Shown here: positions 8,239-55,034 of the stretch, piece after piece
Numbering within the stretch: position 1 is the stretch's first letter
Layout of the letters: every line of letters begins with the position of its first letter
Source of the DNA: Escherichia coli
Lineage (GTDB): Bacteria; Pseudomonadota; Gammaproteobacteria; Enterobacterales; Enterobacteriaceae
Assembly (NCBI RefSeq): GCF_036507355.1
Contig: NZ_AP027877.1
DNA: 64,000 nt
Reading direction: 5' to 3' (one strand)
The notes under the pieces: model-generated
What the model saw: the letters and a program-made list of their open reading frames with translations, nothing else
Databases searched by the model: none
Told to the model about the DNA's origin: nothing
Position numbers and translations under genes: made by a program

Positions 8239-10995
8239 TTACCCGAGAATTTTGCTGGCTTCGCGCGCGACATTATCCATCTCGTCCAACAGTTCCAGCA
8301 GCTCCGGCTCCAAATCTTCTTCTTTAGTACCGCTACGTAACTGTTGTTCGATCAGTTGGCAGAGATTCTTCATACGCGGCACACCGCTATAGCCGCAACT
8401 GCCATGCAGTTTATGAATCAAATCAACCAGGCCTTCCGGGTTTTCTCCAACCAGCTGTTCCTCAACTTTGTTGCGAACTTCAGGCAGGAAATCGAGTAAC
8501 ATTTGCAGCATATCGCGCGCCAGATCGGTTTTTCCTGCTGCCTGGCGTAGTGCCAGTTGCCAGTCGAGGGTCGCATTCGGGTTCACCACAATTTCGTTGA
8601 CTTCGGGCGTCACGACGCGAGAGGAAATACCGCTGCCAGGCTTGTAGCGCAACAGCAAATTATGCAATCGCTCTTCTTCAATCGGTTTCGCCAGATAATC
8701 ACTCATCCCTGCGCCAAGCAGCTTCTCTTTTTGCCCGGCCATTGCATGCGCCGTTACCGCGATAACCGGCGTTTGTTGCTGATGGGGGAGTTGGTGGATG
8801 AGTTCGCAGGCCCGAATGCCATCCATGTCCGGCATTTGAATATCCATTAAGATCAAATCGAACGGCATCTGTTTCGCCCGTTCAACCGCCTGATGCCCGC
8901 TATCGCAAAGCTCCACATGTTGCACCATATCTTCCAGCAATGCGCCGATAAGTTTCAGGTTAGCGGGGTTGTCATCAACCGCCATGACTGTCATTGCCAG
9001 CTTACTTTCATCGGTTACAGGCAAAAGCGTGTTTTGTTTGTGATGACAAAATTCCGTCAGGGCAGGCAACAGGCGCGTAGGTGTTAATGGTTTCAGCAGA
9101 CACGCGCCGATACCATCTTGCTTGAGTTTTTCAGCATTGACTTGTGCATGGCAAGGAAGTGCCAGCATCAGGAAATCGGTCATCGATACCGCTTTCGCTA
9201 ATCGCTCATGTTGCATTGTTAGCGGCTCGCGGAAGGTCACCGCGATGCCTAACAACATCATGTCGTAATGCGCGGGAGGCAGCGCGGAGAACGTTGGGCT
9301 ATAAACCACTTCCAGCGGCGTTTCACTTAAAATATCCAGCGTGCATTGCGCTGCTGCGGAGTTTGGTTCGACATAGGCCAGGCGTTTACCGGCGAGGCAC
9401 TGGGTGGATGGCCCTTCAATAATAATGTTCGGGTTCAGATCGAGATTAATGTGGAACCAGAAAGTTGAACCGCGATTCGGCTGGCTATGGAACGAAATAT
9501 CGCCGCCCATTTCATTAACCAGTTTTTGTGTAATCACCAGCCCCAGCCCGGTGCCACCATGACGGCGGGAAATACTGGCATCAGCCTGTCGGAAGGCCTG
9601 GAATAAGCGCGATTGATCGCGTTCAGGAATACCAATGCCGGTATCCCGAATCTGCACTTCAATCTGCACTTTGGTATTACTCAGCGCACGTTTTTCTACC
9701 AGAATATCAATGTTGCCATTCTCGGTGAATTTAATTGCATTCCCCACCAGGTTAGTGATGATTTGCTGTAATCGCAGTGGGTCGCCGATCACGTTATCAG
9801 GCACGTCGCTTTTAATATTGAGCGTCAGTTCCAACCCTTTATCGTGAGAAGAATGTGCCAGCAGAGTAACGACTTCATCCAGCGTGCTGCGTAGTGGGAA
9901 TGGAATACTTTCCAGAATCAGCTTACCTGCTTCCAGTTTCGAGAAGTCGAGAACATCATTAATAATTGCCAGCAAATTATTTGCCGAACGTTCAATCGTA
10001 TTCAGGTGATCGCGCTGCGTTGGTGTTAATTCTGTTTTCAGCGTCAGGCGGGTAAAGCCAATAACACCATTCAGTGGTGTACGCAGCTCGTGTGACATAT
10101 TTGCCAGAAACTCGGATTTAATACGCGCCGCTTCCTGGGCGCGCTTTTTCGCCAGATCCAACTCAACGTTCTGAATTTCCATCTGCTCCAGCGTTTCACG
10201 CAGATCGGACGTCGCCTGGTCGATATTGTGCTGCATCTCTTCGTGATAAGCAGCCAGCGACATTGCCATCGAGTTGATACCGTTTTTCAGCATATCCAGC
10301 TCGCCGAGCATAAATCCTTCCACCCGGCTGTCGAGTTGCCCGCGACGGATGCGGTCGACGGTATTCACCATGTTGCGAATCGGACCGGTTACATCGCGCA
10401 TTAAGCGCCAGCCAAAAATAAGCGCAATACCGATACAAAACAGCATCATCACGCTGGAAATAAAGATCTCTTTATATTGCTGCAAGCGAACCGATTTAAG
10501 ATCCAGCTCAAGCGCAATATATCCCAACATATTTTGACTATTTTTGGCATCGCTACTGGGCGATTCGTCGGGGGAGTAACTCTCAGAAATAATCGGCGTG
10601 CGGAGGATCATAATATCGCCGTCACGAGTGACAGTGAGCTGGCGAGGAAACGGCACGTTGCTGCCGAGCTGCATTGATGAGGGATCAAGATGAAAATTGG
10701 AGGTGACAAAGAGTCGGTTATTTTCATCATAAACCGAAATCGCGCGAACAATATCGGAATGGCGACGATGCAGTACGCTTATTAACTGACCGATAGATTC
10801 GCGATTTTGCAGGCTCATGCCATATTCAGTAGAAACTGCAAGCGGCTCAATAATGCTGGCACCGGCATCTTCCAGTTGACGCTGCAAGTCGTTATAGCGA
10901 TGCACGACGAAAAAGATACTCAGCAATAAACCAATAAGGACGGTCGGTGCCAGGATCAGAATCATCATGCGTGCGCGCAGGCTGTAGTTGGTCAT
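8239..10995 (-). CDS. barA: Hybrid sensor histidine kinase BarA
   Basis: 918-aa ORF with HAMP, HisKA/HATPase, receiver and HPt regions. Confidence 0.95.
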
Positions 10996-18096: not shown

Positions 18097-19410
<1,314 letters not shown>

Positions 19411-19430
19411 GACTGACTTAACGTCTTAAT

Positions 19431-19461
19431 AAAAAACCCGCTTCTTGAAGCGGGTTTTTTT
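19431..19461 (+). terminator. Rho-independent terminator after eno
   Basis: aaaaaacccgcttcttgaagcgggttttttt. Confidence 0.8.
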
Positions 19462-19465
19462 ATCT

Positions 19466-19828
19466 TCACATTTTGAGTTCAGTAAGCAGAGCGATAACAT
19501 TAATAAATGTTATTCCCACCAGGATAAGTATCCGAACAATTTTTCTGCTATTCCTTACATTGCTGACAAAATCATTATGAGAAATATTGGATGAATATTT
19601 TCGTTGATGGACTTTATAATCCCAAAGAAGATCATTTGCCTCAGGTATTGGGTTAATCAGACTGTAGATGCAAAAGTATACAAACGTATCTAAAGCAAGC
19701 AGTGATGTTATCAGTTGAAATAATTCATCGCCCTGGAAGGCTTTATTAAGCCAAATCATTCCAGCAGCACCGAATAAGCCAAATACAAATTTACTTAATC
19801 GCGGATGATTCGCTAAAATCTTACTCAT
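19466..19828 (-). CDS. Hypothetical small membrane protein (about 3 hydrophobic segments), AT-rich, no recognisable family
   Basis: 120-aa ORF in track; GC visibly below neighbours; function not inferable. Confidence 0.45.
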   Translation of the reverse strand: MSKILANHPRLSKFVFGLFGAAGMIWLNKAFQGDELFQLITSLLALDTFVYFCIYSLINPIPEANDLLWDYKVHQRKYSSNISHNDFVSNVRNSRKIVRILILVGITFINVIALLTELKM

Positions 19829-19863
19829 ATTTTCTTACCTTCCCTGTAATCTGTTTTTAAGTC

Positions 19864-20766
19864 TTACCATCTTCCTGACGCGCCGCCACCGCCGGATGAA
19901 CCGCCGCCACCGCTGAAATTGTCATTGTCGAAAGAGGATGAAGAGGAAGAAGACGATGACGAATGCCAGGAGGCCGAGTTGCTTCTTTCGTAGCGTGACG
20001 GTCGGTTTGCACTACGCATTGAATCACGCACCTTTCTGCCGAAAGGTGTGAAAGCGATAGCTACGACCAGGAATGGAGTGGCGAAACATAATAATGTGGC
20101 AAGAATTCCCCAGCTCCCGCTATATCCAGCGATGGGAAGTACAAAGGCCAGTATTATGGCAGCAAAGCAAATCACTCCCAGCGTTTTGATATATCCTCTG
20201 GCAGAAATAAACGTCAGTACTATCGCCCAGACTAACAGAGCCCACCAACCGCTAAAGGGTAAAGGATGATCGGGCGATGTATTATTGACTAAATCATTTC
20301 CTGATAGTCGGGTTTCAATATCACCAATACCTTGTTGCAAGCCGACAGCAAGGTCGCCCTTTTTAAACGCTGGAATAATACTGTTGCGTATAATTTGCCC
20401 GGACTGCGCATCCGTCAGAATACCCTCAAGTCCGTAGCCAATTTCAATATGTACTGTATGATCTTGCTAGGCAACTACCAGTAAAATACCGTCATCAAGA
20501 TTCTTATGACCGGGCTGCCAACGCTCGAATACCCGCGTTGCGTACTGCTCGATGGTTTCGTCGCCTGTTGTATCAACCACTAACACGACCAACTGTGCGT
20601 GTTTTTTTTGTGTCAGGGCTTTAATCTGGTTGGTCAGGGTGTTTACTTCGCTGTTTGTTAATGTGCCGGTTAAGTCATTCACATACTTGGGTGATTCAGG
20701 TACTGGAATTTGTGTGGCAAACACAGATGAACAGAAGAAAGCCGTAAGGAAGATAAAATTTCGCAT
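19864..20766 (-). pseudogene. ygcG: TPM-domain protein YgcG homolog, interrupted by one in-frame TAG at 20467-20469
   Basis: Track ORFs 20467-20796 and 19864-20340 share a frame; translation through the stop continues the TPM domain (…LLVVA*QDHTVHIEIGYGLEG…); signal peptide start MRNFIF, Gly/Ser-rich C-tail. Confidence 0.7.
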
Positions 20767-20779
20767 AGAACTTCCCCGC

Positions 20780-21400
20780 TTAATGAGCATTAGCATTCTG
20801 GCTAAAATCTATTGTTGGGGCTTTACTTACTGCGGCGACATCATCCGGCAAATAATTTTTCTTTGGTGTGTAATCCATGACCTTTGCGGTTAATACAGCG
20901 GGGAATTTGCGGATAGTGACATTATATTGTTCAATGGCTTTAATATATCTTCCTCGCGCAACGGCAATTCTATTCTCACTTCCTTCGAGCTGTACCATTA
21001 AGTTTTGATAGAGCTCTTGAGCCTTTAACTCAGGGTAACGCTCACTAATTATCGTTAACTGACCGAGAGTGCGAGTCACCTGCGCCTGGGCCTGTTGCCA
21101 GGCTTGTAATTTTTGTGCATCTCCGGGAGCTTGCTGAAGATCGCTGCTGGCGCGATTAGCCTGGCTACGAGCCAATGTTACGGCTTCCAAAACGTCTTTT
21201 TCATGGTTGGAATAACCTTTAATACTGGCGACAAGATTAGGAATAAGATCGGCGCGACGTTGATATTGATTTAATACCTCAGACCAGGAGGCGTTAACCT
21301 GCTCATCATAGGTTTGAATATCGTTATATCCACAGCCTGATAAATTGAAAATAAATATAATTAAGATGAATATCCTGAGCATGTTTAAATCCTTTTTCAT
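20780..21400 (-). CDS. LemA family protein, probable lipoprotein (alternative start 21382, MLRIF…LSGC lipobox)
   Basis: 206-aa ORF; stop 14 bp upstream of the ygcG start, so the two look co-transcribed; low GC. Confidence 0.7.
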   Translation of the reverse strand: MKKDLNMLRIFILIIFIFNLSGCGYNDIQTYDEQVNASWSEVLNQYQRRADLIPNLVASIKGYSNHEKDVLEAVTLARSQANRASSDLQQAPGDAQKLQAWQQAQAQVTRTLGQLTIISERYPELKAQELYQNLMVQLEGSENRIAVARGRYIKAIEQYNVTIRKFPAVLTAKVMDYTPKKNYLPDDVAAVSKAPTIDFSQNANAH

Positions 21401-21554
21401 TAATTCCTTAAAACATAATACGCCGCTTCATTTTATTCTTTATGATCTAATGCACTTTTTGCCTTAAACCTGCCTGTAACAGAATGTTAATAAGACATGA
21501 TTGTTGCGGCAGGATCTGCAATAATTAACAATTATCCACTTCACAGAGAATGCT

Positions 21555-22226
21555 ATGCAGTACCCGATTAACGAGATGTTCCAGACCCTGCAAGGTGAGG
21601 GTTACTTTACCGGCGTCCCCGCCATTTTTATTCGTTTACAGGGATGCCCGGTTGGCTGTGCCTGGTGCGACACCAAACACACCTGGGAAAAGCTTGAGGA
21701 TCGGGAAGTCTCCCTTTTCAGCATTCTGGCGAAGACCAAAGAGAGTGATAAGTGGGGGGCGGCGAGCAGTGAAGACTTGTTGGCTGTCATTAGTCGCCAG
21801 GGATACACCGCGCGGCATGTGGTGATTACGGGTGGTGAGCCTTGCATTCATGATTTGCTACCACTGACTGATCTGCTCGAAAAGAACGGTTTTAGCTGCC
21901 AGATCGAGACCAGTGGTACTCATGAGGTACGCTGCACACCGAATACCTGGGTTACCGTATCGCCAAAGCTGAACATGCGCGGCGGCTATGAAGTGTTGTC
22001 ACAGGCACTGGAGCGAGCCAACGAAATCAAGCATCCAGTGGGGCGCGTACGCGATATTGAAGCACTGGATGAACTATTGGCAACGCTGACCGATGATAAA
22101 CCGCGAGTCATTGCACTGCAGCCGATTAGCCAAAAGGATGATGCCACACGATTGTGCATTGAAACCTGCATTGCGCGTAATTGGCGTTTGTCGATGCAAA
22201 CACATAAATATCTAAATATTGCCTGA
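21555..22226 (+). CDS. queE: 7-carboxy-7-deazaguanine synthase QueE
   Basis: 223-aa radical-SAM ORF (CxxxCxxC-like cluster). Confidence 0.9.
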   Translation: MQYPINEMFQTLQGEGYFTGVPAIFIRLQGCPVGCAWCDTKHTWEKLEDREVSLFSILAKTKESDKWGAASSEDLLAVISRQGYTARHVVITGGEPCIHDLLPLTDLLEKNGFSCQIETSGTHEVRCTPNTWVTVSPKLNMRGGYEVLSQALERANEIKHPVGRVRDIEALDELLATLTDDKPRVIALQPISQKDDATRLCIETCIARNWRLSMQTHKYLNIA

Positions 22227-22565
22227 TTAAACATTTATAAGCGTTATAAATGGGTGGAACCTGTAAAGACTTCTACTCATTTATATTCTTTGTCGCCTCT
22301 GAAAACTCCTCCATTTTACCCATCCAGGGCTAATCATTAGCATTCTCTACAAATTCTGTGGTGTTAATTTTTTGTTGGAGTGAAAATTATTGCGGTAAAG
22401 TTTGGTAGATTTTAGTTTGTATAGAATTATTTTAAATATTTGCCTTTTTAATCAATGGGTTAAGTGCTCTTTAACATAATGGATGTGTTGTTTGTGTGAT
22501 ACTGTAAAGTTGGTAGATTGTGACTGGCTTAAAAAATCATTAATTAATAATAGGTTATGTTTAGA

Positions 22566-22777
22566 GAGTTCCCCGCGCCAGCGGGGATAAACCGGAGAGA
22601 GTCCAGTATCAATCCCGCGATCCGCAGAGTTCCCCGCGCCAGCGGGGATAAACCGCCGTTGCGGATCTTGAGTAGTGCCACGTCACCGAGTTCCCCGCGC
22701 CAGCGGGGATAAACCGGGTACAAAAGAGGCCCCATTCTGGCAGGGCTCGAGTTCCCCGCGCCAGCGGGGATAAACCA
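22566..22777 (+). CRISPR. Type I-E CRISPR array: 4 repeats of 29 bp (GAGTTCCCCGCGCCAGCGGGGATAAACCG) and 3 spacers of 32 bp, AT-rich leader upstream
   Basis: Repeats at 22566, 22627, 22688 and 22749 (61-bp period); last repeat ends in A; degenerate repeat remnant near 22867-22888. Confidence 0.95.
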
Positions 22778-23244
22778 CCATATAACCCGTTATCTCTTTC
22801 TCAAGTTTTTATATTAGCAGTACTTGTAATAAGCAACATATCCACGTAACACCTCATGTTCAAAATAGTTCCCCATGCCAGATAAGTTCACAATTATCGA
22901 TACAAAAAATTAAATTTAATCAAAGTGTTATTTGTATAATTCTTAAGCCGTTAAGAAATTTTAATCTATTATTTTTTTAATATTAATTAATGCCTGTTAA
23001 TTTTTTCTTTAGTATAACAGTGTATTTTTTAAGCTTGTTATTCATTGATTAAGTAATAAATCTGGAAATTTGTCTTTGTTTTGAGGCTAATGAGTGGTTT
23101 TACATAACCGCCTCTATACGCTGTTGATGAATAGTTCTTATGAATAAAGATATCCAGTTCATACTTTAAGTGAAAATTGATAAAGTGCGATTCGTATTGT
23201 CTTTTATTCTAAAGACATCGAGTGTAGTTAATATTCCTTGTAAA

Positions 23245-23368
23245 AACAGGGATAAACCGAACTAGTTAAAGTTTTTATTATGTTCCCTGCATCAGCGGGG
23301 ATAAACCGGACTTGTTATCATTTTTTAAGTTGTCGAACTTATGTTCCCCGCGCCAGCGGGGATAACCA
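23245..23368 (+). CRISPR. Degenerate, vestigial CRISPR array (2-3 mutated repeats, one 32-bp spacer)
   Basis: Partial repeat ending ggataaaccg at 23259, mutated repeats at 23280-23308 and 23341-23368 flanking a 32-bp spacer. Confidence 0.7.
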
Positions 23369-23414
23369 TTCAGGTATGTTCAGGCCGGGCAGTTTCCCGC
23401 CCGGTTTTCCTCAC

Positions 23415-24893
23415 TTACGCATTCGACCAGCTCTGGATCGAATCCGCATTTCCCAATTCCCCATGCATCACTTCATACGATTTTTTCAGAATCACATCAG
23501 TATGTTTGGTTAGGTCTTTGAAAATGCCTTTATTCATCGCGTCGTAGCGTTTGGCATTGCTCTCAATCGGTATAAAGATATCTTTCACGCGAACCATTTT
23601 ATCGACAGCCGTTGCGTAATCCGGGTATAGCCCCAGACCTACCGCGGTATTAATCGCTGCCCCCAGACTTGCACAACCGTTAATGGCGTTACGTCGTGCC
23701 GGAAGGTTGAACACGTCGGCAAAAATCTGCATAAACAGATCGCTGTTCGAACCGCCGCCAGTAATGATCACATGCTTCGCAAAGTGATTCATTTCATTAC
23801 ACATATTGTCGTAATTGTTCTTCAGCGTCAGCGCCACGCTTTCCAGTATCGAACGATATATCCATGCGTAATCCATGCTGGAATCAAAGCCGATCATAAT
23901 CCCGCGTTTGTACGGTTCCCACGGATTGGTCAGCCAGTCCAGCACCGTCATCAGCCCATTACAGCCAGGTGGCACACTAGAGGCTTTCTTGTTGAGTAAA
24001 TCTTCCGGTGAAAGATCCTGCGCCCTGGCATCCTGAATTAACGACTCGCCCAACATGTCGCGCAGCCAGCTCACCGTCCACATGCCTTTGCGAATACCGT
24101 AACCTTCATACAGCAATGTTTGCGGAATAGAAGACATAATCGGCCAGTACGCCACCGGATCTTTCGGCAAGGCTTTGCCGTTCATCATCAATGCGATGTA
24201 AGTGCCAAGAGAAATTACCGCAGTTTCATCATCCAGTAATCCGGCCCCCAGAGCTTCTACCGGTTTATCACTGGTGGTACAAACAACCGGCAGTCCTGCC
24301 GGGAAATGTGTCGCCAGTGCGGCTTGTGGTGTGATATGTCCGAGGACGGTGCCAGGCATTTGCACATCAAACAGCATATGACGAGGGATATTAAACTTCT
24401 CCATTACCGCAGCATCTTCGCTCCATGCCCAGCTCTTATAATCCACCGGCCACTGACCAAAATAGTTGGCGATATTGTCTTTAAACTCGCCGGTTAAGCG
24501 ATGCGTCAGATAACCCGAAAAAGAGGTGACATATGCCACGTCAGGATTCGTAGGTTCGTAAGGGCGTGTAACGCGTGCATCCTGCCAGCTAATCAATGGC
24601 GCAGCTGGCGTGCCATCGGCTTTCAATAACGCACGGCAGCAACGGATGGATCCCAGACCAATACCGACAATATCTTCTTTATTCCCGGCAAACTGACTCA
24701 TCAAATCGTGACCGGCAAAACATAATGATGCCCATAAATCGTCGTCAGGATGTTCTGCAGTATCGGCATCTGGCGTGTGCATCGGCTGCAATAAACCTTT
24801 GCCTTCGCAAACCACATTACCTTCCAGATCGTACATCACCACTTTTGTGCTCTGACTTCCGCCATCAATCCCTATGATATATTTTTTCGACAT
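23415..24893 (-). CDS. ygcE: FGGY-family carbohydrate kinase YgcE
   Basis: 492-aa ORF. Confidence 0.85.
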   Translation of the reverse strand: MSKKYIIGIDGGSQSTKVVMYDLEGNVVCEGKGLLQPMHTPDADTAEHPDDDLWASLCFAGHDLMSQFAGNKEDIVGIGLGSIRCCRALLKADGTPAAPLISWQDARVTRPYEPTNPDVAYVTSFSGYLTHRLTGEFKDNIANYFGQWPVDYKSWAWSEDAAVMEKFNIPRHMLFDVQMPGTVLGHITPQAALATHFPAGLPVVCTTSDKPVEALGAGLLDDETAVISLGTYIALMMNGKALPKDPVAYWPIMSSIPQTLLYEGYGIRKGMWTVSWLRDMLGESLIQDARAQDLSPEDLLNKKASSVPPGCNGLMTVLDWLTNPWEPYKRGIMIGFDSSMDYAWIYRSILESVALTLKNNYDNMCNEMNHFAKHVIITGGGSNSDLFMQIFADVFNLPARRNAINGCASLGAAINTAVGLGLYPDYATAVDKMVRVKDIFIPIESNAKRYDAMNKGIFKDLTKHTDVILKKSYEVMHGELGNADSIQSWSNA

Positions 24894-24919: not shown

Positions 24920-26197
24920 TTACTTGCTGCTAGCTATTGCGGGGGCGCTATCAGCAGTACGAATTTTTTGGAACAGCAAAAAGGTAAAGACGATCACCAT
25001 GCCGAGTGCCGCCATGCCCATCAGCCACATGTTGCGGTAGGCTTCTGCTGCGGGCAGGGTGTCCTGCCAGTGGCCGATAATCGGGTAAACGAAGACATCC
25101 GGCAGGAATCCAATCACCGAACAAATACCTACCGTGGTGCCCATAATGTAAGACGGTGTTCTCGCTTCGCCAGGGCAGGCCCAGTACAGCCCGCGTGAGG
25201 CGTAACAGGTGAATCCCAGCAGTAAAATCAGGCCAATCCCCATCGCGACCGATTGCGGGTTAGAGTTCGTGACGAGCAGGGCAGTTAACGCCAGCAGGCC
25301 GAGTACGGAAAGGATTTGGATCACGCGGGTAGGGGATTTCACTTTGCTGTAGGTGGTGATTATGCCGCCAAGTGGGCCGCACAGCGCGCGGAATATTTTG
25401 TTGATCACAATCCCCATGTAGCTCGCCGCCACCAGCGACATGCCGTACATTTCGGTCAGATAGTTGGTGGAGTAACTCAGAATGGCGTAGATGGTGAAGA
25501 CACCAAAAATCACCATGCTGCAATACCAGGTGGTGCTGATGCGCAAAACGGCCAGGATGTCGCTAAGCTGGAATGACTGTTTTTCTTCGTTATTGGCACT
25601 ACGCAGGTTATTGTTATCGCTAACAAAAAACCAGCACAGAAGCCCCAACAAGATGTAAACCACACTGTAGATGATAATGACCGTTTTCAGGCTGGCGCTG
25701 TCATCCGGTGCAAAGCGAGAAAAGACCCACATGGTAAACACCGCCAGCGACATTACACCGACGCCGCGCAGCCCTTCCATCCAGCCCATAATTTTCCCTT
25801 GCTCGCTATGATCGCCAAGCAACGATGCGGCTTTAATCGACACCGACCACAGCATTAAAATCGTTGTTATCGCAAAGGCGACCTGAATACAGAGCATTAC
25901 CCACAGCGGTGGATACGTTGCCATTAACAGACCCAGTAATCCGGTAATGATCATCGCGGAAGTAATCATTTTGCGGTGTGAAAATTTATCGGCAATAACG
26001 CCGCTGGGGGCATAAAGAATAATAGCCGCAATACCAAAGGTACTCATTATTAAACCTATCTCGGTATTGCTGAATCCCATAAATTTCGCCATGGGAATTT
26101 GATAAATATAACGTAAATAAGCCAGGTCGAAACTAACGCCGCCGCTAAAACTAATTATCGCGAGGGTTATCCAACGGCGATATGAGTTGTGTTGCAT
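24920..26197 (-). CDS. yqcE: MFS transporter YqcE
   Basis: 425-aa multi-TM ORF. Confidence 0.85.
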   Translation of the reverse strand: MQHNSYRRWITLAIISFSGGVSFDLAYLRYIYQIPMAKFMGFSNTEIGLIMSTFGIAAIILYAPSGVIADKFSHRKMITSAMIITGLLGLLMATYPPLWVMLCIQVAFAITTILMLWSVSIKAASLLGDHSEQGKIMGWMEGLRGVGVMSLAVFTMWVFSRFAPDDSASLKTVIIIYSVVYILLGLLCWFFVSDNNNLRSANNEEKQSFQLSDILAVLRISTTWYCSMVIFGVFTIYAILSYSTNYLTEMYGMSLVAASYMGIVINKIFRALCGPLGGIITTYSKVKSPTRVIQILSVLGLLALTALLVTNSNPQSVAMGIGLILLLGFTCYASRGLYWACPGEARTPSYIMGTTVGICSVIGFLPDVFVYPIIGHWQDTLPAAEAYRNMWLMGMAALGMVIVFTFLLFQKIRTADSAPAIASSK

Positions 26198-26440
26198 ATC
26201 GTATTCCCATTTGTAATAGACAAAAAAAAGAGAAAAGTAAGCCGCCCTTTCAGGTGGATTACTTTTCTCAGGTCTCTAGTAATTGAAATAATAAATAACA
26301 TGGAAAGCAGAGGTGTTGTGTGAGAGTAATCACGCTTCTGCTTTTTAAAACTATTTGATAATGCGAATATCACACTGTGATTACGATCACATTAGCAGTT
26401 ATGTCCTTATGCTAAAAATTATCTCCAGTTACCAGAGATA

Positions 26441-27571
26441 ATGAGAAAGGTAACTGAGAATATGCAGGCGACGGCGCAATGTGGCGTTCCGCTGGAGGTG
26501 CTGGAAAACGCGTTGCGTGAAAAAGGTTACACCACGGGGCATTCTCCGCAGTCAAAGCCGCTGGCGCAGATGGGCGGCCTGGTAGCAACCCGCAGTATCG
26601 GGCAGTTCTCCACACTCTACGGCGCAATCGAAGATATGGTCGTTGGTCTGGAAGCAGTATTGGCTGATGGCACCGTGACACGTATTAAAAACGTGCCACG
26701 CCGCGCGGCTGGCCCGGACATTCGTCACATCATCATCGGCAACGAAGGTGCATTGTGCTATATCACTGAAGTAACAGTGAAAATCTTTAAATTCACCCCG
26801 GAAAACAACCTCTTCTACGGCTATATCCTGGAAGACATGAAAACCGGCTTCAACATCCTGCGTGAAATCATGGTGGAAGGGTATCGTCCGTCGATCGCTC
26901 GTTTGTATGACGCTGAAGATGGCACCCAACACTTCACGCATTTTGCCGACGGAAAATGCGTGCTGATCTTTATGGCTGAAGGTAACCCTCGCATTGCGAA
27001 GGCGACGGGCGAAGGGATTGCGGAAATCGTTGCCCGCTACCCGCAATGCCAACGCGTGGACAGCAAGCTGATCGAAACCTGGTTTAACAACCTGAACTGG
27101 GGACCGGATAAAGTGGCTGCCGAACGTGTGCAGATCCTCAAAACCGGCAACATGGGCTTTACTACCGAAGTGTCCGGCTGCTGGAGCTGCATCCACGAAA
27201 TCTACGAAAGCGTTATTAACCGTATTCGTACCGAGTTCCCGCACGCCGACGACATCACTATGCTGGGCGGTCACTCCTCTCATAGCTATCAGAACGGCAC
27301 CAACATGTACTTCGTCTACGACTACAACGTTGTCAACTGTAAGCCGGAAGAGGAAATCGACAAGTACCACAATCCGCTCAACAAAATCATTTGCGAAGAA
27401 ACCATTCGCCTCGGTGGTTCGATGGTGCACCACCACGGTATCGGTAAACATCGCGTTCACTGGAGCAAGCTGGAACACGGCAGCGCGTGGGCGTTGCTGG
27501 AAGGGCTGAAAAAGCAATTCGATCCTAACGGCATTATGAATACGGGTACTATCTATCCGATTGAAAAATAA
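26441..27571 (+). CDS. ygcU: FAD-linked oxidase YgcU homolog, apparently lacking about 100 N-terminal residues of the FAD-binding domain
   Basis: 376-aa ORF begins inside the PCMH-type FAD-binding region; the preceding in-frame sequence is closed by stops. Confidence 0.6.
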   Translation: MRKVTENMQATAQCGVPLEVLENALREKGYTTGHSPQSKPLAQMGGLVATRSIGQFSTLYGAIEDMVVGLEAVLADGTVTRIKNVPRRAAGPDIRHIIIGNEGALCYITEVTVKIFKFTPENNLFYGYILEDMKTGFNILREIMVEGYRPSIARLYDAEDGTQHFTHFADGKCVLIFMAEGNPRIAKATGEGIAEIVARYPQCQRVDSKLIETWFNNLNWGPDKVAAERVQILKTGNMGFTTEVSGCWSCIHEIYESVINRIRTEFPHADDITMLGGHSSHSYQNGTNMYFVYDYNVVNCKPEEEIDKYHNPLNKIICEETIRLGGSMVHHHGIGKHRVHWSKLEHGSAWALLEGLKKQFDPNGIMNTGTIYPIEK

Positions 27572-27664: not shown

Positions 27665-29002
27665 ATGAACACTTCACCGGTGCGAATGGATGATTTACCA
27701 CTTAACCGTTTTCACTGTCGAATTGCTGCGCTCACTTTCGGCGCACACCTGACCGACGGTTATGTTCTCGGCGTCATTGGTTACGCCATTATTCAACTTA
27801 CGCCCGCCATGCAACTGACGCCGTTTATGGCGGGAATGATCGGCGGCTCGGCGCTCCTTGGTTTGTTTCTTGGCAGCCTGGTTCTTGGGTGGATCTCCGA
27901 CCATATTGGTCGGCAAAAAATCTTCACCTTCAGCTTTTTGCTGATTACGCTCGCTTCGTTCCTGCAATTTTTTGCCACCACGCCAGAGCATCTTATTGGA
28001 CTGCGCATTTTGATCGGCATTGGTCTGGGAGGCGATTACTCAGTAGGTCACACCTTGCTGGCTGAATTTTCCCCGCGCCGCCATCGCGGTGTTTTGCTGG
28101 GCGCATTCAGCGTGGTGTGGACCGTAGGCTATGTGCTGGCAAGTATTGCCGGACATCACTTTATTTCCGAAAACCCGGAGGCCTGGCGCTGGCTGCTGGC
28201 ATCGGCAGCTCTGCCCGCGTTGTTGATTACGTTATTACGCTGGGGAACGCCAGAATCGCCACGCTGGCTACTGCGCCAGGGGCGTTTTGCAGAAGCTCAC
28301 GCTATCGTGCATCGCTATTTTGGTCCCCATGTTTTACTGGGCGATGAAGTGGCAACGGCGACCCATAAACACATCAAAACCTTGTTCTCTTCACGCTACT
28401 GGCGGCGCACGGCGTTTAACAGCGTCTTCTTTGTCTGCCTCGTAATCCCATGGTTTGTGATTTATACCTGGCTGCCAACTATCGCCCAGACTATTGGTCT
28501 GGAAGATGCGCTGACTGCCAGCCTGATGCTTAATGCGTTGTTAATTGTGGGCGCGCTGCTGGGATTAGTTCTGACGCACCTGCTGGCACATCGCAAATTT
28601 TTGCTGGGAAGTTTTTTGCTGCTGGCGGCAACGCTGGTAGTAATGGCCTGTTTGCCTTCCGGCAGTTCATTAACGCTGCTGCTTTTTGTTCTCTTCAGCA
28701 CCACCATTTCGGCAGTCAGTAATCTGGTGGGCATTTTGCCTGCGGAAAGTTTTCCTACTGACATTCGCTCGCTGGGCGTCGGTTTTGCCATCGCCATGAG
28801 TCGGTTGGGGGCGGCGGTAAGTACTGGCCTGCTGCCGTGGGTGCTGGCGCAGTGGGGAATGCAAGTCACCTTATTGCTCCTGGCGGCAGTGTTGTTGGTT
28901 GGTTTTGTTGTAACCTGGCTATGGGCACCAGAAACCAAAGCACTCCCGCTGGTGGCGGCGGGAAATGTAGGAGGTGCGAATGAACATTCTGTTAGCGTTT
29001 AA
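27665..29002 (+). CDS. ygcS: MFS sugar transporter YgcS
   Basis: Start placed at MNTSPVRM inside the 469-aa track ORF. Confidence 0.8.
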   Translation: MNTSPVRMDDLPLNRFHCRIAALTFGAHLTDGYVLGVIGYAIIQLTPAMQLTPFMAGMIGGSALLGLFLGSLVLGWISDHIGRQKIFTFSFLLITLASFLQFFATTPEHLIGLRILIGIGLGGDYSVGHTLLAEFSPRRHRGVLLGAFSVVWTVGYVLASIAGHHFISENPEAWRWLLASAALPALLITLLRWGTPESPRWLLRQGRFAEAHAIVHRYFGPHVLLGDEVATATHKHIKTLFSSRYWRRTAFNSVFFVCLVIPWFVIYTWLPTIAQTIGLEDALTASLMLNALLIVGALLGLVLTHLLAHRKFLLGSFLLLAATLVVMACLPSGSSLTLLLFVLFSTTISAVSNLVGILPAESFPTDIRSLGVGFAIAMSRLGAAVSTGLLPWVLAQWGMQVTLLLLAAVLLVGFVVTWLWAPETKALPLVAAGNVGGANEHSVSV

Positions 29003-29759
29003 AGCCGAACCGGATGCCGGAATGCTGGCGGAAAAAGAGTGGCAGGCGGCGGCTCAGGGTAATAGCGGACCGGATATTTCGCTACTGCGAAGTTTACTCG
29101 GTGCTGATGAACAGGCTGCCGCCGCGCTGCTGTTGGCGCAGAGAAAAAACGGTACGTCGATGTCTTTAACCGCGTTGAGCATGGGGGATGAACGGGCGTT
29201 GCACTGGCTGCGCTATCTCATGGCTCTTGGGTTTGAGGAAGCTGTATTGCTGGAGACGGCGGCAGATCTGCGCTTTGCGCCGGAATTTGTCGCTCGCCAT
29301 ATTGCCGAATGGCAGCGTCAGAATCCGCTGGATCTGATAATTACCGGCTGCCAAAGCAGCGAAGGGCAGAATGGGCAAACGCCATTTTTGCTGGCGGAAA
29401 TGCTGGGCTGGCCTTGCTTCACCCAGGTGGAGCGTTTCACTCTCGACGCGCCGTTTATCACCCTCGAACAGCGTACTGAACATGGGCTGCGCTGTTGCCG
29501 GGTTCGCTTGCCTGCGGTGATTGCCGTGCGTCAGTGTGGTGAAGTGGCCTTGCCAGTACCGGGAATGCGCCAGCGAATGGCTGCGGGGAAAGCAGCAATT
29601 ATCCGTAAAACTGTTGCTGTCGAATTGCCAGCGATGCAGTGTCTGCAACTGGCAAGAGCAGAGCAACGACGCGGAGCGACGTTGATTGATGGGCAAACGG
29701 TAGCAGAAAAAGCGCAAAAGCTATGGCAGGACTATTTACGCCAAAGGATGCAGCCATGA
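28974..29759 (+). CDS. ygcR: Electron-transfer-flavoprotein beta-subunit-like protein YgcR (start possibly 28980)
   Basis: 261-aa ORF. Confidence 0.8.
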   Translation: MRMNILLAFKAEPDAGMLAEKEWQAAAQGNSGPDISLLRSLLGADEQAAAALLLAQRKNGTSMSLTALSMGDERALHWLRYLMALGFEEAVLLETAADLRFAPEFVARHIAEWQRQNPLDLIITGCQSSEGQNGQTPFLLAEMLGWPCFTQVERFTLDAPFITLEQRTEHGLRCCRVRLPAVIAVRQCGEVALPVPGMRQRMAAGKAAIIRKTVAVELPAMQCLQLARAEQRRGATLIDGQTVAEKAQKLWQDYLRQRMQP

Positions 29760-30616
29760 ATATCGCAATTGTGACAATAAATCAGGAGAATGCCGCATTA
29801 GCGGGCTGGCTGGCGGCGCAGGATGTCAGCGGTTGTACCCTGGCGCACTGGCAAATAGAACCACAGCCCGTAGTGGTGGAACAGGTGCTGGATGCGCTGG
29901 TGGAACAGTGGCAGCGAACGCCTGCGAACGTTGTTCTCTTTCCGCCGGGAACGTTTGGCGATGAACTGTCGACCCGGCTGGCCTGGCGTTTACATGGTGC
30001 AAGCATCTGCCAGGTGACTTCGTTAGAGATTCCAATCGTAAGCGTGCGCAAATCCCACTGGGGAAATGCGCTAACGGCGACGCTGCAAACAGAAAAACGC
30101 CCGCTATGTCTTTCCCTGGCGCGCCAGGCGGGAGCAGATAAAAATGCCACGTTGCCCTCTGGTATGCAGCAACTGAACATAGTCCCAGGTGCGCTTCCGG
30201 ACTGGCTGGTTAGCATAGAGAACCTGAAAAATGTTACTCGCGACCCATTAGCTGAGGCCAGACGGGTGCTGGTGGTGGGGCAGGGCGGAGAGGCAGATAA
30301 CCAGGAAATTGCTATGCTGGCAGAAAAGCTGGGAGCCGAAGTAGGCTACAGTCGGGCACGAGTGATGAACGGTGGCGTTGATGCCGAAAAAGTGATTGGT
30401 ATTTCCGGACATCTGCTGGCACCTGAGGTGTGTATTGTTGTTGGCGCATCCGGTGCGGCAGCGTTAATGGCGGGCGTAAGCAATAGCAAGTTTGTGGTGG
30501 CGATTAATCATGACGCCAGCGCAGCGGTATTTTCACAGGCAGATGTTGGCGTGGTTGATGACTGGAAAGTGGTGCTGGAGGCACTGGTGACAACCATTCA
30601 CGCAGAATGCCAATAA
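29756..30616 (+). CDS. ygcQ: Electron-transfer-flavoprotein alpha-subunit-like protein YgcQ
   Basis: Start placed at MNIAIVT inside the 297-aa track ORF. Confidence 0.8.
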   Translation: MNIAIVTINQENAALAGWLAAQDVSGCTLAHWQIEPQPVVVEQVLDALVEQWQRTPANVVLFPPGTFGDELSTRLAWRLHGASICQVTSLEIPIVSVRKSHWGNALTATLQTEKRPLCLSLARQAGADKNATLPSGMQQLNIVPGALPDWLVSIENLKNVTRDPLAEARRVLVVGQGGEADNQEIAMLAEKLGAEVGYSRARVMNGGVDAEKVIGISGHLLAPEVCIVVGASGAAALMAGVSNSKFVVAINHDASAAVFSQADVGVVDDWKVVLEALVTTIHAECQ

Positions 30617-30763: not shown

Positions 30764-31339
30764 TCAAAGCAATTTTTTCGCTAATGTCCAGACTCCGGTA
30801 TTCGTGGTGGAAAGCGCCACGACACCCGCGTTAATCGCATTACGCGCATCTTCTTCATCGCATACCAGCCCGCCAGCAATCAGCGGTTGGCGGATTTTTT
30901 CCGTCACCCAGCCCAGCACTTTGGGCATGCAGCCTGGCAGGATCTCAATACAATCCGGATTCGATTGCGCAACTTGCTTATCAATGTTGTGAAACGAAAT
31001 CGAATCAACAATAAACAGGCGATGAATACAGAAAAAACCTTCCGCTCTTGCCGCTTTTAGCATCGATGCTTTGGTGCTGATAATTCCATCCGCCTCGGTC
31101 ACCAGTTTCAAAAACTGAATCACGACTTCTTTATTTGACGCGCCTTCCAGCAAATCGACATGAATAAAAGCATATTTCCCGGCGTTCTTAATCTTTTTAA
31201 CGATTTGACTAATGGTGCAGATATTGCCGTACAACACGGAAATAAATTGGCATTCAGAATCGATTGCCAGTTGCAGGCTGGCATTATCTTTAACGGCAGC
31301 AATCACCGGATTCTGGCGGAGCAGGTGTAAGAGGGGCAT
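30764..31339 (-). CDS. ygcP: GlpP-like glycerol-3-phosphate-responsive antiterminator family protein YgcP
   Basis: 191-aa ORF. Confidence 0.8.
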   Translation of the reverse strand: MPLLHLLRQNPVIAAVKDNASLQLAIDSECQFISVLYGNICTISQIVKKIKNAGKYAFIHVDLLEGASNKEVVIQFLKLVTEADGIISTKASMLKAARAEGFFCIHRLFIVDSISFHNIDKQVAQSNPDCIEILPGCMPKVLGWVTEKIRQPLIAGGLVCDEEDARNAINAGVVALSTTNTGVWTLAKKLL

Positions 31340-37956: not shown

Positions 37957-38219
37957 ATATTGCCGGATAAATTAAACGCCTCTGTCAGAAATGATGGGGG
38001 CGTTTTTATTTTGCGAGCAGCATTCCTGATTTTAAACGTGAACGCCGCTGGAAGAATTATCAGGTATAGAATGGCGTCGGGTGCTTGAGGCTGTCTGGCG
38101 TTAAGCATTCGCGAGGTTCCAGATGGACAAAAGCCCCAGGCGATATTTCTATCAACCTGAGGCTCGCGTTCGAACGTAGCAATTCGGATGTTAGTCTCTT
38201 CTTTGCAGGGAGGCAAGAC

Positions 38220-38372
38220 ATGCTAACAAAATATGCCCTTGTGGCAATCATAGTACTGTGTTGTACAGTACTGGGATTCACGCTCATGGTAGGCGACTCG
38301 TTATGTGAGTTGAATATCAGAGAGCGTGGTATGGAGTTTAAGGCAGTTCTCGCTTACGAATCGAAGAAGTAG
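38220..38372 (+). CDS. Hok/Gef-family type I toxin (50 aa)
   Basis: [50 protein letters not shown]: single TM segment then the SLCE..IR…AYES.K signature; AGGGAGG RBS 7 nt upstream. Confidence 0.75.
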
Positions 38373-38761
38373 CCACCACGTGGGGGTAAAACCCCGCGTA
38401 TTGAATTGTGATGGTTTGGTCTCCTGCACCCTTTTTTAAATTTATATTTTTTATGTGAATATATTGTCTCTATTTATTATTATGAATTTCAAATGAAAAT
38501 CATAAATTTATTCACAATATAAATGTTTTATTGGCTGATATATATCACAGATAATTTTTAAAATATGCGTAAATATCCTTTAAGTTTACTGAAGGATAAA
38601 AATATTGTGACTTTCTTTGATTTCTGGGGAAAAACCCGACGCGACGAGAAAGAAGGGGGTGACGACTATCACCTTCTTTGCTGGCATTCGCTGGATGTGG
38701 CCGCGATGGGCTATTTAATGGTTAAAAGAAATTGCTTCGGGCTGGCGGTAATGACTCCAAC

Positions 38762-39265
38762 TTATTGATAGTGTTTTATGTTCAGATAATGCCCGATGAC
38801 TTTGTCATGCAGCTCCACCGATTTTGAGAACGACAGCGACTTCCGTCCCAGCCGTGCCAGGTGCTGCCTCAGATTCAGGTTATGCCGCTCAATTCGCTGC
38901 GTATATCGCTTGCTGATTACGTGCAGCTTTCCCTTCAGGCGGGATTCATACAGCGGCCAGCCATCCGTCATCCATATCACCACGTCAAAGGGTGACAGCA
39001 GGCTCATAAGACGCCCCAGCGTCGCCATCGTGCGTTCACCGAATACGTGCGCAACAACCGTCTTCCGGAGCCTGTCATACGCGTAAAACAGCCAGCGCTG
39101 GCGCGATTTAGCCCCGACATAGCCCCACTGTTCGTCCATTTCCGCGCAGACGATGACGTCACTGCCCGGCTGTATGCGCGAGGTTACCGACTGCGGCCTG
39201 AGTTTTTTAAGTGACGTAAAATCGTGTTGAGGCCAACGCCCATAATGCGGGCTGTTGCCCGGCAT
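38762..39265 (-). CDS. insB: IS1 InsB (expressed as InsAB' by a -1 frameshift)
   Basis: 167-aa ORF overlapping insA in the -1 frame. Confidence 0.9.
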
Positions 39266-39459
39266 CCAACGCCATTCATGGCCATATCAATGATTTTCTG
39301 GTGCGTACCGGGTTGAGAAGCGGTGTAAGTGAACTGCAGTTGCCATGTTTTACGGCAGTGAGAGCAGAGATAGCGCTGATGTCCGGCGGTGCTTTTGCCG
39401 TTACGCACCACCCCGTCAGTAGCTGAACAGGAGGGACAGCTGATAGAAACAGAAGCCAC
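39184..39459 (-). CDS. insA: IS1 InsA
   Basis: 91-aa [26 protein letters not shown]…. Confidence 0.9.
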
Positions 39460-41451
39460 TGGAGCACCTCAAAAACACCATCATACACTAAATCAGTAAG
39501 TTGGCAGCATCACCCGGGCTGGCTGATTATTTTCGTCAATTAGGGATTTCTGACAAGGAACAGGCGGCTCAATTTTTCGCCTGGTTGTTGTGCTGGCACG
39601 ATATTGGAAAATTTGCCCGCTCATTTCAGCAACTTTACCTGCACCCACAACTCAAGGTTCCGGAAGGCGCAAGAAAGAATTACGAAAAGATCTCTCATTC
39701 AACGCTGGGCTACTGGTTGTGGCATCATTATTTAAGTGAATGCGAAGAATTGCTTCCTGCCTCTTCACTCTCTACTCGCAAACTTAAACGTGTAATAGCG
39801 ATGTGGATGCCCATGACTACCGGGCATCATGGTCGGCCCCCTGACCGTATTGATGAACTGGATAATTTTCTGCCTGAAGACAAAGTTGCCGCGCGAGATT
39901 TTCTCCTTGAAATCAAGGCACTGTGTCCGCTCATAGAGATTCCCACATTCTGGGATAATGACGAGGGAGTTGAACTTTTAAAACAACTTTCCTGGTATAT
40001 CTCTGCAACAGTCGTACTTGCAGACTGGACGGGTTCGTCAACGCGATTTTTTCCACGCGTCGCACACCCAATGGATATTAAAGATTACTGGCAGAAAACT
40101 TTAGTTCAGGCTCAAAACGCCTTAACCGTCTTTCCTCCAAAAGCAGAAACCGCACCTTTCACCGGAATTAATACGCTGTTTCCTTTTATTGAGCACCCGA
40201 CACCATTACAGCAAAAGGTGCTGGATCTGGATATCAGCCAGCCAGGGCCACAGTTATTTATTCTGGAAGACGTGACTGGCGCAGGTAAAACAGAAGCGGC
40301 GCTTATCCTGGCGCACAGGTTGATGGCTGCGAGGAAAGCACAGGGTTTGTTTTTTGGCCTGCCAACAATGGCAACGGCCAATGCCATGTACGATCGGCTG
40401 GTCAAAACCTGGCTTGCTTTCTATTCGCCAGAGTCCCGCCCCAGCCTGGTGCTGGCACACAGTGCCCGCACATTAATGGACCGCTTTAATGAATCACTCT
40501 GGTCCGGTGATTTAGTCGGGTCAGAAGAACCGGATGAACAAGCGTTCAGTCAAGGATGTGCAGCCTGGTTTGCCGACAGTAACAAGAAGGCTTTACTGGC
40601 TGAAATTGGCGTCGGCACGCTGGATCAGGCGATGATGGCGGTGATGCCGTTCAAACATAATAATCTGCGGCTTCTGGGGCTGAGTAACAAAATCCTGCTG
40701 GCTGATGAGATCCACGCCTGTGACGCTTACATGTCATGCATTCTTGAAGGGCTGATCGAGCGGCAGGCGCGTGGTGGAAACAGCGTCATTTTGCTTTCTG
40801 CTACGTTATCCCAACAGCAGCGCGACAAACTCGTCGCCGCCTTTGCGCGTGGCACAGAGGGCCAGCAAGAAGCTCCGTTCCTTGAAAAGGATGATTACCC
40901 CTGGCTGACGCATGTCACGAAATCCGATGTGAACTCACACCGGGTAGCGACGCGCAAAGACGTTGAGCGTAGCGTCAGCGTGGGTTGGCTTCATAGTGAA
41001 CAAGAGAGTATTGCGCGTATCGAATCGGCGGTAAGTCAGGGAAAATGCATCGCCTGGATCCGCAATTCTGTCGATGACGCTATTAAGGTTCATCGTCAGC
41101 TGCTTGCCCGCGGCGTCATTCCCGCTTCCAGCCTTTCACTCTTTCATAGCCGCTTTGCTTTTAGCGATCGCCAGCGAATCGAAACGGAAACGCTGGCACG
41201 CTTTGGTAAAAATTGTAATTTAAAAAGATCATCGCAAGTCATTGTTTGTACACAAGTAATTGAGCAAAGTGTGGATATTGACCTGGACGAAATGATCTCC
41301 GACCTTGCCCCCATTGATTTGCTGATCCAGCGAGCGGGGCGATTACAGCGACATATCCGCGATATTAATGGTCAGTTAAAGCGTGACGGAAAAGACGAGC
41401 GTTCCCCTCCTGAATTGCTGATTCTGGCCCCCGTCTGGGACGACGCTCCTG

Positions 41452-41781
41452 GTGACGAATGGTTCGGCAGTGCCATGCGTACGCGCCTTTACAGAGGCCG
41501 CGCTTAAAGTCTCACCAACCGGAAAACAAAACAGCTTTGCCAGCCGTGCCTACGCCTCCTGGGCGCTGGCGGAAAAAGGCACTGTTCAACCGCGTTCTCT
41601 GGCGGCGGCTTTCTATGAACCCATTAATGGTACCCGTCAGTTAGATGTGGCGGTGCAGCGTATTACAACGCTTCGCGAAAACATGAATACGGTCTACGAA
41701 CAGAAGACTGAATGCGCAAGTTTTGACGTGATGAACAAACAGGGAAGCATGAAGGACGTACTGGACTTTATCTGCGCGTAA
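41452..41781 (+). pseudogene. 3' remnant of a cas gene, most plausibly the end of cas7/casC fused out of frame to cas3
   Basis: 109-aa frame ending 10 bp before the cas5 ATG, the position casC occupies in an intact I-E operon; the alternative reading is a frameshifted cas3 tail. Confidence 0.4.
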
Positions 41782-41791
41782 GGGGCGGCTT

Positions 41792-42973
<1,182 letters not shown>

Positions 42974-55017: not shown

Positions 55018-55034
55018 AATTAAGAGAATAAGCA

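Follow-up and report, generated by a model that had tools for sequence, protein, structure and literature searches.

In a 64,000-nucleotide stretch of Escherichia coli DNA (contig NZ_AP027877.1 of RefSeq assembly GCF_036507355.1, hereafter the window), an open reading frame (ORF) for a flavin adenine dinucleotide (FAD)-linked oxidase begins only 243 bp from the start of the divergent gene yqcE (the yqcE start codon ends at 26197, the ORF begins at 26441), and an inverted repeat surrounds its start codon. What has been lost between these two genes, and what does the repeat represent? The initial annotation of the window had stated that K-12 carries the short-chain dehydrogenase gene ygcW at this place, followed by a longer ygcU, and had postulated a deletion of about 1 kb that removed ygcW together with the 5' end of ygcU. 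Comparison with K-12 establishes the event but corrects its size to 1,254 bp. The explanation that best accounts for all observations, and to which we assign a probability of roughly 0.85, is a derived and strain-specific deletion, joined at the level of microhomology, by which YgcW was lost, YgcU was left almost certainly inactive and the downstream operon was freed of a terminator.

The 1,254-bp deletion, its polarity and its origin

The window is collinear with positions 2,926,050 to 2,855,000 of K-12 MG1655 in reverse orientation, and alignment of the yqcE-ygcW-ygcU region, the check that had been proposed for this locus, returned two collinear BLAST blocks abutting at 26455, between which 1,254 bp of K-12 sequence are skipped (junction 26455|26456). 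The junction reads GAGAAAGGTAACT|GAGAATATGCAGG, with the core GGTAACT|GAGAAT, and the two K-12 breakpoints share a single T, a microhomology of 1 bp. In K-12 the gene order is yqcE | ygcW-ygcU-ygcS-ygcR-ygcQ (b2775 | b2774, b4463, b2771-b2769), and the missing segment comprises the 60 bp of the yqcE-ygcW intergenic region closest to ygcW, the entire ygcW gene (b2774, 786 bp), the 69-bp spacer separating it from ygcU, and the first 339 bp of ygcU, corresponding to codons 1-113. On the left, the break cuts into the 5' arm of the intrinsic terminator that belongs to the ygcW leader; on the right, it falls at ygcU codon 113/114. K-12 does possess ygcW and a longer YgcU, as had been stated, the latter of 484 residues, so that its locus is not of the shortened form with a 376-residue YgcU and no ygcW, and no YgcW homologue was detected by tblastn in the 64-kb window. 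The same search found ygcE, yqcE, ygcS, ygcR, ygcQ, ygcP, ygcO and ygcN all at full length, with 95-99% identity to K-12. The two loci are alike in gene order, orientation and nucleotide sequence (~97% identity on either side of the junction), as well as in their CRP site, yqcE leader and ygcP, and differ in that K-12 has the 3' half of the terminator, ygcW, the spacer and ygcU codons 1-113, and in the length of YgcU (484 against 376 or 369 residues, depending on the start codon).

The polarity of this difference follows from its distribution. Full-length ygcW-ygcU pairs are found in E. albertii, E. whittamii, Citrobacter, Klebsiella, Raoultella, Serratia and Rahnella, and in rearranged form also in Firmicutes, Deltaproteobacteria and Actinobacteria. 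Among 5,426 RefSeq complete E. coli genomes, at least 80% of the deleted 1,254-bp segment is present in 5,047 (93%), and the complete genomes most similar to the window (98.4-98.6% identical over the 7.2-kb neighbourhood) all carry the extra 1,254 bp. Since outgroups and most E. coli keep ygcW-ygcU with a full-length YgcU, the window represents the derived, deleted state. The converse, in which the window arrangement is ancestral and an insertion gave K-12-like strains their ygcW and longer ygcU, can draw on nothing beyond the bare presence/absence difference, whereas the ORF of the window begins in the middle of a Pfam domain, its ygcW leader holds only part of a motif that other loci have in full, the segment is carried by 93% of complete E. 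coli genomes, and the gene pair extends to E. albertii, Citrobacter, Klebsiella, Serratia and even Firmicutes; the probability left to it is next to negligible, the outgroup gene order having effectively refuted it.

None of the 5,426 complete genomes contains a junction-spanning match, a circumstance that could favour an artefact of assembly, for instance a chimera or a collapsed contig. However, the NCBI draft assembly GCA_905398585.1 matches the window without a single difference over 7,110 bp, junction included, and the Logan assembly of SRR31122001 has the same junction and is identical apart from an extra copy of the insertion sequence (IS) IS1. The identity of the junction in these two assemblies argues that it is no artefact, and the extra IS1 end, at the equivalent of 26307, makes the SRR31122001 isolate distinguishable from the window strain while placing it in the same lineage. 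The flanks contain no repeat capable of causing a collapse, the microhomology being 1 bp, and the 369-residue product is annotated also on a 4.64-Mb E. coli chromosome, so that an artefact is highly improbable. That exact product was found on 8 contigs only in a gene-position collection of 153 billion genes, where the exact 376-residue product has no record; the 45-nt junction sequence CCAGAGATAATGAGAAAGGTAACTGAGAATATGCAGGCGACGGCG had no match in a contig collection holding one genome per species, from which it follows that the source genome does not serve as a species representative there. Two of the eight contigs (L007 and L008; 98.8% and 99.4% identical) end a few bases from the ATG and do not show the junction. 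The allele is thus a real, rare, recent and strain-specific deletion and, considered as gene loss, an ordinary one.

In the SRR31122001 assembly (L006, positions 1-28) the IS1 end abuts the equivalent of 26307 between the yqcE leader and the CRP sites, and probably separates yqcE from its CRP site; given this insertion, IS1 is still moving in the deletion lineage. The L007 and L008 contigs, which belong to other lineages, end inside ygcU 5-7 bp from the junction (window equivalent 26460-26462), which may point to a repeat or an inserted IS close to this site in other strains.

The breakpoints offer some indication of how the deletion formed. In K-12 the left one lies inside a near-perfect 42-bp palindrome, with 19 complementary positions per arm, two of which are G·T, and a 4-nt loop. 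Palindromes of this kind are prone to stall replication and to be cleaved as hairpins. Slippage driven by microhomology was considered and set aside, only 1 bp being common to the breakpoints. Inspection of the junction sequence disclosed no IS sequence, terminal repeat or target-site duplication, and because the microhomology is 1 bp and no IS remnant is present, illegitimate end joining, or a replication template switch, would be the simplest route. To judge from the breakpoints, palindrome-stimulated breakage followed by microhomology-level joining would therefore be the most likely course of events.

An alternative in which IS1 generated an adjacent deletion and was itself later lost has circumstantial appeal. 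IS1 is active in the lineage, as witnessed by the copy in cas3 (38746-39515) and the one at the 26307 equivalent in the SRR31122001 assembly; strain 720632 (NZ_CP025842.1) carries an IS1-flanked deletion that removes ygcW independently; in another genome (H31) IS1 is inserted in ygcU, between ygcW and ygcU sequences; and the two unrelated contigs described above end 5-7 bp from the junction. Nevertheless, an IS1 adjacent deletion would leave an IS1 end abutting the junction, whereas the junction is devoid of IS sequence, terminal repeat and target-site duplication and the nearest IS1 of the window is the one in cas3. The element is retained in such deletions, its later clean loss being rare, and the breakpoints of strain 720632 differ, one falling within yqcE and the other 69 bp upstream of the right breakpoint of the window. 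The 720632 deletion resembles the present one in lacking ygcW and the 5' end of ygcU with ygcS-ygcR-ygcQ intact, and departs from it in having IS1 at the junction, a left breakpoint in yqcE and neither leader preserved; the two deletions arose independently and by different mechanisms. For the window, an origin by IS1 is quite unlikely, and palindrome-stimulated breakage with microhomology-level joining is preferred.

The ygcU remnant and the fate of the pathway

The 376-residue ORF consists of MRKVT, five codons of former leader DNA, fused in frame to E114 of YgcU, and continues to residue 484. GenBank places the start at the next ATG (26462), giving a protein of 369 residues (BED21166.1, HCP3730035.1). 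BED21166.1 bears the label 'putative FAD-linked oxidoreductase YgcU' and is encoded by an E. coli contig of 4,643,937 bp. Over K-12 YgcU residues 116-484 the remnant is identical at 367 of 369 positions and free of frameshifts, and this near-identity, together with synteny (ygcS-ygcR-ygcQ come next), identifies it as a truncated orthologue of K-12 ygcU. Its Pfam match to FAD_binding_4 covers profile positions 60-138 of 139, where K-12 YgcU matches positions 1-138; the impression that the ORF starts inside the FAD-binding domain was correct, the first matched residue corresponding to position 60. With residues 1-113 absent, the N-terminal FAD_binding_4 domain is incomplete, while FAD-oxidase_C (PF02913) is present in full (positions 2-247 of 248, E = 9.8e-20).

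Among the lost residues is the segment VPRTGASATEGG, at positions 78-89 of YgcU. In flavoproteins of the VAO/PCMH type, the pyrophosphate of FAD is held by the equivalent loop, which is rich in glycine and belongs to the N-terminal half of the FAD-binding domain, the half in contact with the ADP part of the cofactor. Because the first 59 positions of FAD_binding_4 and the VPRTGASATEGG loop are gone, the remnant is almost certainly unable to bind FAD and inactive, a pseudogene-like frame in spite of being open. The opposite proposal, in which YgcU still works as an enzyme despite its shortening and begins with a new N-terminus (MRKVT-E114...), could appeal to the open, in-frame ORF, the complete FAD-oxidase_C domain and the 367 identities in 369 positions to K-12; it would have to accommodate the absence of 59 of 139 FAD-binding-domain positions, the VPRTGASATEGG loop included, the general role of the missing half in contacting the ADP part of the cofactor, the lack of a strong Shine-Dalgarno sequence at either ATG, and the loss of YgcW, the partner in the pathway. 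We regard it as very unlikely, and consider the remnant to be inactive in all probability. Annotation pipelines nonetheless present it as an intact 369-residue 'YgcU', which should be flagged as truncated.

YgcW is a classical short-chain dehydrogenase/reductase (SDR; Pfam adh_short, E = 1e-52). For comparison of the leaders, 80 loci encoding YgcW relatives were fetched, and in these ygcW, ygcU, the FGGY kinase gene ygcE and ygcP form a core conserved across phyla. Since two of the four conserved core genes have been hit, one absent and the other truncated, the ygc pathway has very probably been inactivated, as judged from gene content. One consideration weighs against so broad a conclusion. 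Neither the remnant ORF nor any of the neighbouring ygc genes, which are all intact, has decayed, so that either the deletion happened recently or what remains of the cluster still serves a purpose. In these loci (L009-L088), YgcW is unusually well conserved between phyla: the E. coli protein shares 70-79% amino-acid identity with those from Sporomusa, Clostridia, Cohnella, Desulfobacterales and metagenome-assembled genomes of Actinomycetota, and it is always accompanied by YgcU, usually by the FGGY kinase YgcE, and mostly by the electron transfer flavoprotein (ETF) genes YgcR/YgcQ; the set has the appearance of a catabolic module that is either mobile or very ancient.

Paired leaders between yqcE and ygcW

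The inverted repeat noticed around the new start codon is genuine and exact. Its arms, CAGTTACC (26426-26433) and GGTAACTG (26449-26456), are complementary at 8 of 8 positions and enclose a 15-nt loop holding the ATG at 26441; the coordinates first given, about 26425-26458, deviated by 1-2 nt. Of these pairs, seven pre-exist in K-12 (AGTTACC...GGTAACT), the junction contributing the additional C-G pair through the first base of ygcU codon 114 (calculated hairpin energy -10.2 kcal/mol in the window against -6.7 in K-12). As these seven pairs are also evolutionarily conserved, the repeat is not regarded as a by-product of the junction, and is instead a candidate for the surviving antiterminator helix of a conserved leader.

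In K-12 this leader contains a 19-bp stem with a T9 run behind it, 31 nt ahead of the ygcW ATG; the hairpin is oriented with ygcW and has a folding energy of -30.6 kcal/mol (10347..10306 of the fetched K-12 locus, L001). By its sequence features it is a textbook intrinsic terminator. The window keeps segment A (CAGTTACCAGAG), the linker, segment B as far as GGTAACT and the first 13 nt of the terminator 5' arm; the apical hairpin, the terminator 3' arm (segment C) and the T9 run have been deleted.

These segments are part of a motif that precedes ygcW in several of the Firmicutes and essentially all of the Enterobacterales examined, with a second copy on the opposite strand upstream of yqcE. 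Its 5' part consists of segment A, (A/G)TTAC(T/C)AGAG, a linker of 5-6 nt, and segment B, GAGAAA(A/G)GTAA(C/T); the 3' part consists of a variable apical hairpin, segment C, TTAC(T/C)TTTCTC, and a run of ~8 T. The 86 distinct instances gave a clean alignment (A2), and the motif was searched for with a covariance model (R1). Over the 86 leaders the terminator helix B:C is paired in 90.8% of cases, with changes on both sides in 12 of its 17 pairs. For the antiterminator helix A:B, 94.2% of cells are paired, compared with 15-54% in slid controls, and 3 of 7 pairs show double changes: 5-31 (GC 51 / AU 34), 10-26 (UA 60 / CG 23) and 8-28 (AU 85 / GC 1). Column 26 covaries both with column 10 in segment A and with column 62 in segment C, and such three-way covariation is the pattern expected of mutually exclusive helices. 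In 85 kb of K-12, R1 identifies exactly two full copies, those of the ygcW leader (80.6 bits) and the yqcE leader (79.6 bits). The window has one full copy, in the yqcE leader, and the ygcW-leader stub, of which positions 26424-26451 score 13 bits against the 80.6 bits of the intact K-12 copy.

The motif travels with ygcP, which encodes an RNA-binding antiterminator of the GlpP family. Wherever ygcP lies within range the motif is present (54/54 loci, 1-3 copies each, from Enterobacterales to Firmicutes), while of the 26 loci without ygcP in range, 22 are without the motif as well; two of the remaining four are short contigs. A ygc-like cluster of Enterococcus gilvus also contains the motif (R1, 45 bits). 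For the ygcW leader the antiterminator hairpin is calculated at -6.7 kcal/mol and the terminator at -30.6 kcal/mol; for the yqcE leader the values are -1.4 and -20.5 kcal/mol. Weak antiterminators opposed to strong terminators are the energetic pattern of switches in which a protein must hold the antiterminator. From its co-occurrence with the motif, YgcP is presumed to be the trans-acting factor for both leaders.

Each leader also appears to be preceded by a promoter of its own. The perfect CRP site TGTGATTACGATCACA, retained in the window, is bound by CRP in vivo in enterotoxigenic E. coli H10407 (PMC4287617) and in vitro with a Kd of ~1.7 nM (PMC12871828), and a TAAAAAT -10-like element is correctly placed for the ygcW leader. 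A second, predicted CRP-like site, TGTGAGAGTAATCACG, is situated 57 bp from TGTGATTACGATCACA, and a TATTAT -10-like element is found at the yqcE side. The two leader motifs each begin ~41.5 bp from the centre of a CRP site, and on this spacing a back-to-back pair of class II CRP promoters is proposed, with transcripts that would start at segment A.

Two further candidates within the leader were tried and rejected. The ATG in the antiterminator loop could be the start of a leader peptide, and it is in frame with ygcW in K-12, but it is not conserved over the 86 leaders. A second 8-bp inverted repeat, ATTATCTC/GAGATAAT, was examined as a conserved anti-antiterminator and set aside on finding that Citrobacter and other genera do not preserve its 5' arm.

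The motif seems not to have been described in the RNA families and literature searched. At gathering threshold, Rfam gave no intergenic match in the window, K-12 and nine other loci, and in E-value mode only sub-threshold chance matches, the best being the SurA small RNA (25.9 bits against a threshold of 100). No paper was found in a literature search on ygcP and antitermination, and a search with the motif strings TTACTAGAG and GAGAAAAGTAA retrieved unrelated papers only.

Among described systems, GlpP of Bacillus subtilis is by analogy the closest mechanistic relative of the ygc leaders. GlpP activates glpD, glpFK and glpTQ by overcoming an 'inherent terminator' in the 5' untranslated region (UTR) near the GlpP site (PMC9604022). 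Common to both systems are a PF04309 protein encoded in the cluster, the succession of a promoter, a short 5' UTR and an intrinsic terminator with a site upstream of or overlapping it, and several leaders per regulon with catabolite control on top, by CcpA in Bacillus and CRP here. The ygc system differs in serving non-glp genes (SDR, FAD oxidase, FGGY kinase, ETF, major facilitator superfamily (MFS) transporters) and in its Gram-negative host. Examined feature by feature as a leader of the GlpP type, the locus has ygcP (PF04309) in the same cluster, and an intrinsic terminator in the 5' UTR of both K-12 leaders and of the yqcE copy of the window; the ygcW copy of the window lacks one, its 3' arm and T-run having been deleted. 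A candidate antiterminator pairing that overlaps the terminator 5' arm and is supported by covariation is likewise present, this support coming from related sequences with few independent events. The RAT-terminator switches of BglG, SacY and LicT follow the same logic, in which a strong terminator (-20 to -31 kcal/mol in ygc) has its 5' arm overlapped by a weak antiterminator (-1.4 to -6.7 kcal/mol in ygc) that a protein would have to stabilise, but the ygc protein is of the PF04309 and not the CAT/PRD type, and its leaders have no sequence similarity to RAT.

Taken together, the yqcE-ygcW region would contain two copies of an undescribed, phylum-spanning class of cis-regulatory RNA, each beginning at the transcription start site of a class II CRP promoter, in which a weak antiterminator helix with a conserved AGAG...GAGAAA loop is opposed to a strong terminator, and which would be the target of the YgcP subfamily; the window would then be a natural terminator-less allele that uncouples ygcS-ygcRQ. 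We see the odds for this composite model as evenly balanced. Two points tell against it. The 86 leaders are orthologues of only two paralogous types, so that independent compensatory events are far fewer than the cell counts; and R1 has no match at E <= 1 in the canonical Staphylococcus aureus glpP-glpFKD locus. A Bacillus sp. locus with a GlpP homologue (L089) likewise gave no significant R1 match. Between the S. aureus glp locus and the ygc motif only a short UAGAGAC...GAGA core is alike, by eye. The glpF 5' UTR of S. aureus (L090, 7900-8003) reads AAUAGAGACGGGAGAUUUCUAC...GUAGGAAUCUCUUUGUCUUUUU and holds a terminator whose 5' arm begins with this core, resembling the loop of the ygc motif; the core may be a common recognition element of the GlpP family.

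For the operon itself, the deletion has placed ygcS-ygcR-ygcQ immediately behind the ygcU remnant and a leader that has lost its terminator. Retained are the CRP site and the presumed promoter, along with segments A and B and the loop, whereas the terminator between the presumed CRP-dependent promoter and the operon has been destroyed. Since the terminator 3' arm and T-run are lost while the promoter is kept, transcription into the ygcU remnant and ygcS-ygcR-ygcQ is expected to be constitutive, subject only to CRP; on sequence grounds, the remnant, ygcS, ygcR and ygcQ should be transcribed without YgcP control. The divergent yqcE-ygcE operon would retain an intact switch.

Such a change could be adaptive, either providing constitutive CRP-driven YgcS and YgcR/YgcQ or removing a costly or toxic step. 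Exactly the terminator 3' arm and T-run were removed, with the promoter, CRP site and downstream genes spared, and the allele has persisted long enough to be found in at least two distinguishable isolates. Against this stand its great rarity (8 contigs in the gene-position collection, 0/5,426 complete genomes) and the cas locus of the same strain, where other IS and deletion decay fits neutral erosion. Rarity and the IS1/deletion decay of the cas locus together favour neutral erosion, and adaptive rewiring is considered unlikely.

Taken alone, the deletion is a private gene-loss allele in an accessory catabolic cluster and carries little weight. The leader motif, for its part, offers a testable model of CRP and YgcP antitermination for the uncharacterised ygc cluster, for which the deletion strain provides a natural mutant, and if true would constitute a rare case of GlpP-type protein-dependent antitermination in a Gram-negative model organism.

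Coordinates and other features of the window

Table 1. Features of the yqcE-ygcP region (window coordinates unless another sequence is named)
Feature	Position	Strand	Description	Basis
yqcE	24920..26197	-	MFS transporter, 425 aa, intact	98.8% identity to K-12, full length
Second leader motif copy	26220..26287	-	Intact (antiterminator, terminator, T-run), upstream of yqcE-ygcE	R1, 79.6 bits, E = 1.3e-14
Second CRP-like site TGTGAGAGTAATCACG	26319..26334		Predicted; centre ~41.5 bp upstream of first base of yqcE leader motif	
CRP site TGTGATTACGATCACA	26376..26391		Perfect, retained; centre ~41.5 bp upstream of first base of ygcW leader motif	
ygcW leader motif remnant	26424..26455	+	Segment A (CAGTTACCAGAG), linker and segment B to GGTAACT kept	
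Inverted repeat CAGTTACC / GGTAACTG	26426..26456	+	Candidate antiterminator helix A:B	Covariation over 86 homologous leaders
5'-truncated ygcU remnant	26441..27571	+	376-aa ORF, MRKVT + YgcU residues 114-484	ORF list, Pfam
Deletion junction	26455..26456		Skipped K-12 stretch NC_000913.3 2,899,081-2,900,334, 1-bp 'T' ambiguity	BLAST, breakpoint sequences
ygcS, ygcR, ygcQ	27665..30616	+	MFS transporter (ygcS), ETF beta and alpha (ygcR, ygcQ), intact	Full-length tblastn matches, 95-99% identity
ygcP	30764..31339	-	GlpP-family RNA-binding antiterminator (PF04309), intact	Pfam G3P_antiterm, E = 1.4e-62
K-12 leader motif copies	10503-10570; 10296-10366 (L001 coordinates)	+; -	yqcE-ygcW intergenic region	

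Beyond the ygc cluster, the window shows several other features. The IS1 copy at 38746-39515 (InsA and InsB ORFs) is inserted in cas3, the HD domain of which is 5'-truncated; in the cas region (39501-42973) cas1 and cas2 follow cas3, the Cascade genes casA-E are missing, and the cas genes represent an allele too divergent from K-12 for a megablast match. Short type I-E CRISPR arrays, missed by Tandem Repeats Finder and found by a separate repeat search, are located between queE and ygcE (22565-22777 and 23230-23369; four repeats and three degenerate ones) and adjoining cas2 (43070-43220; three repeats). The rpoS-mutS variable region (54407-57344) has a 2.9-kb segment in place of the 6-kb ygbI-ygbN block of K-12, which is probably the form reported for O157:H7 and Shigella dysenteriae type 1. 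At ygcG (19419-21348), ~1.9 kb replace ~1 kb of K-12, and the closest genomes annotate LemA-family and TPM-domain genes there; across 19400-23420 the best complete E. coli genomes are only ~95% identical. Finally, Rfam identifies the small RNA CsrB at 1536-1895 (384 bits) and a sok antitoxin RNA at 38079-38235 (105 bits), the counterpart of K-12 sokX.

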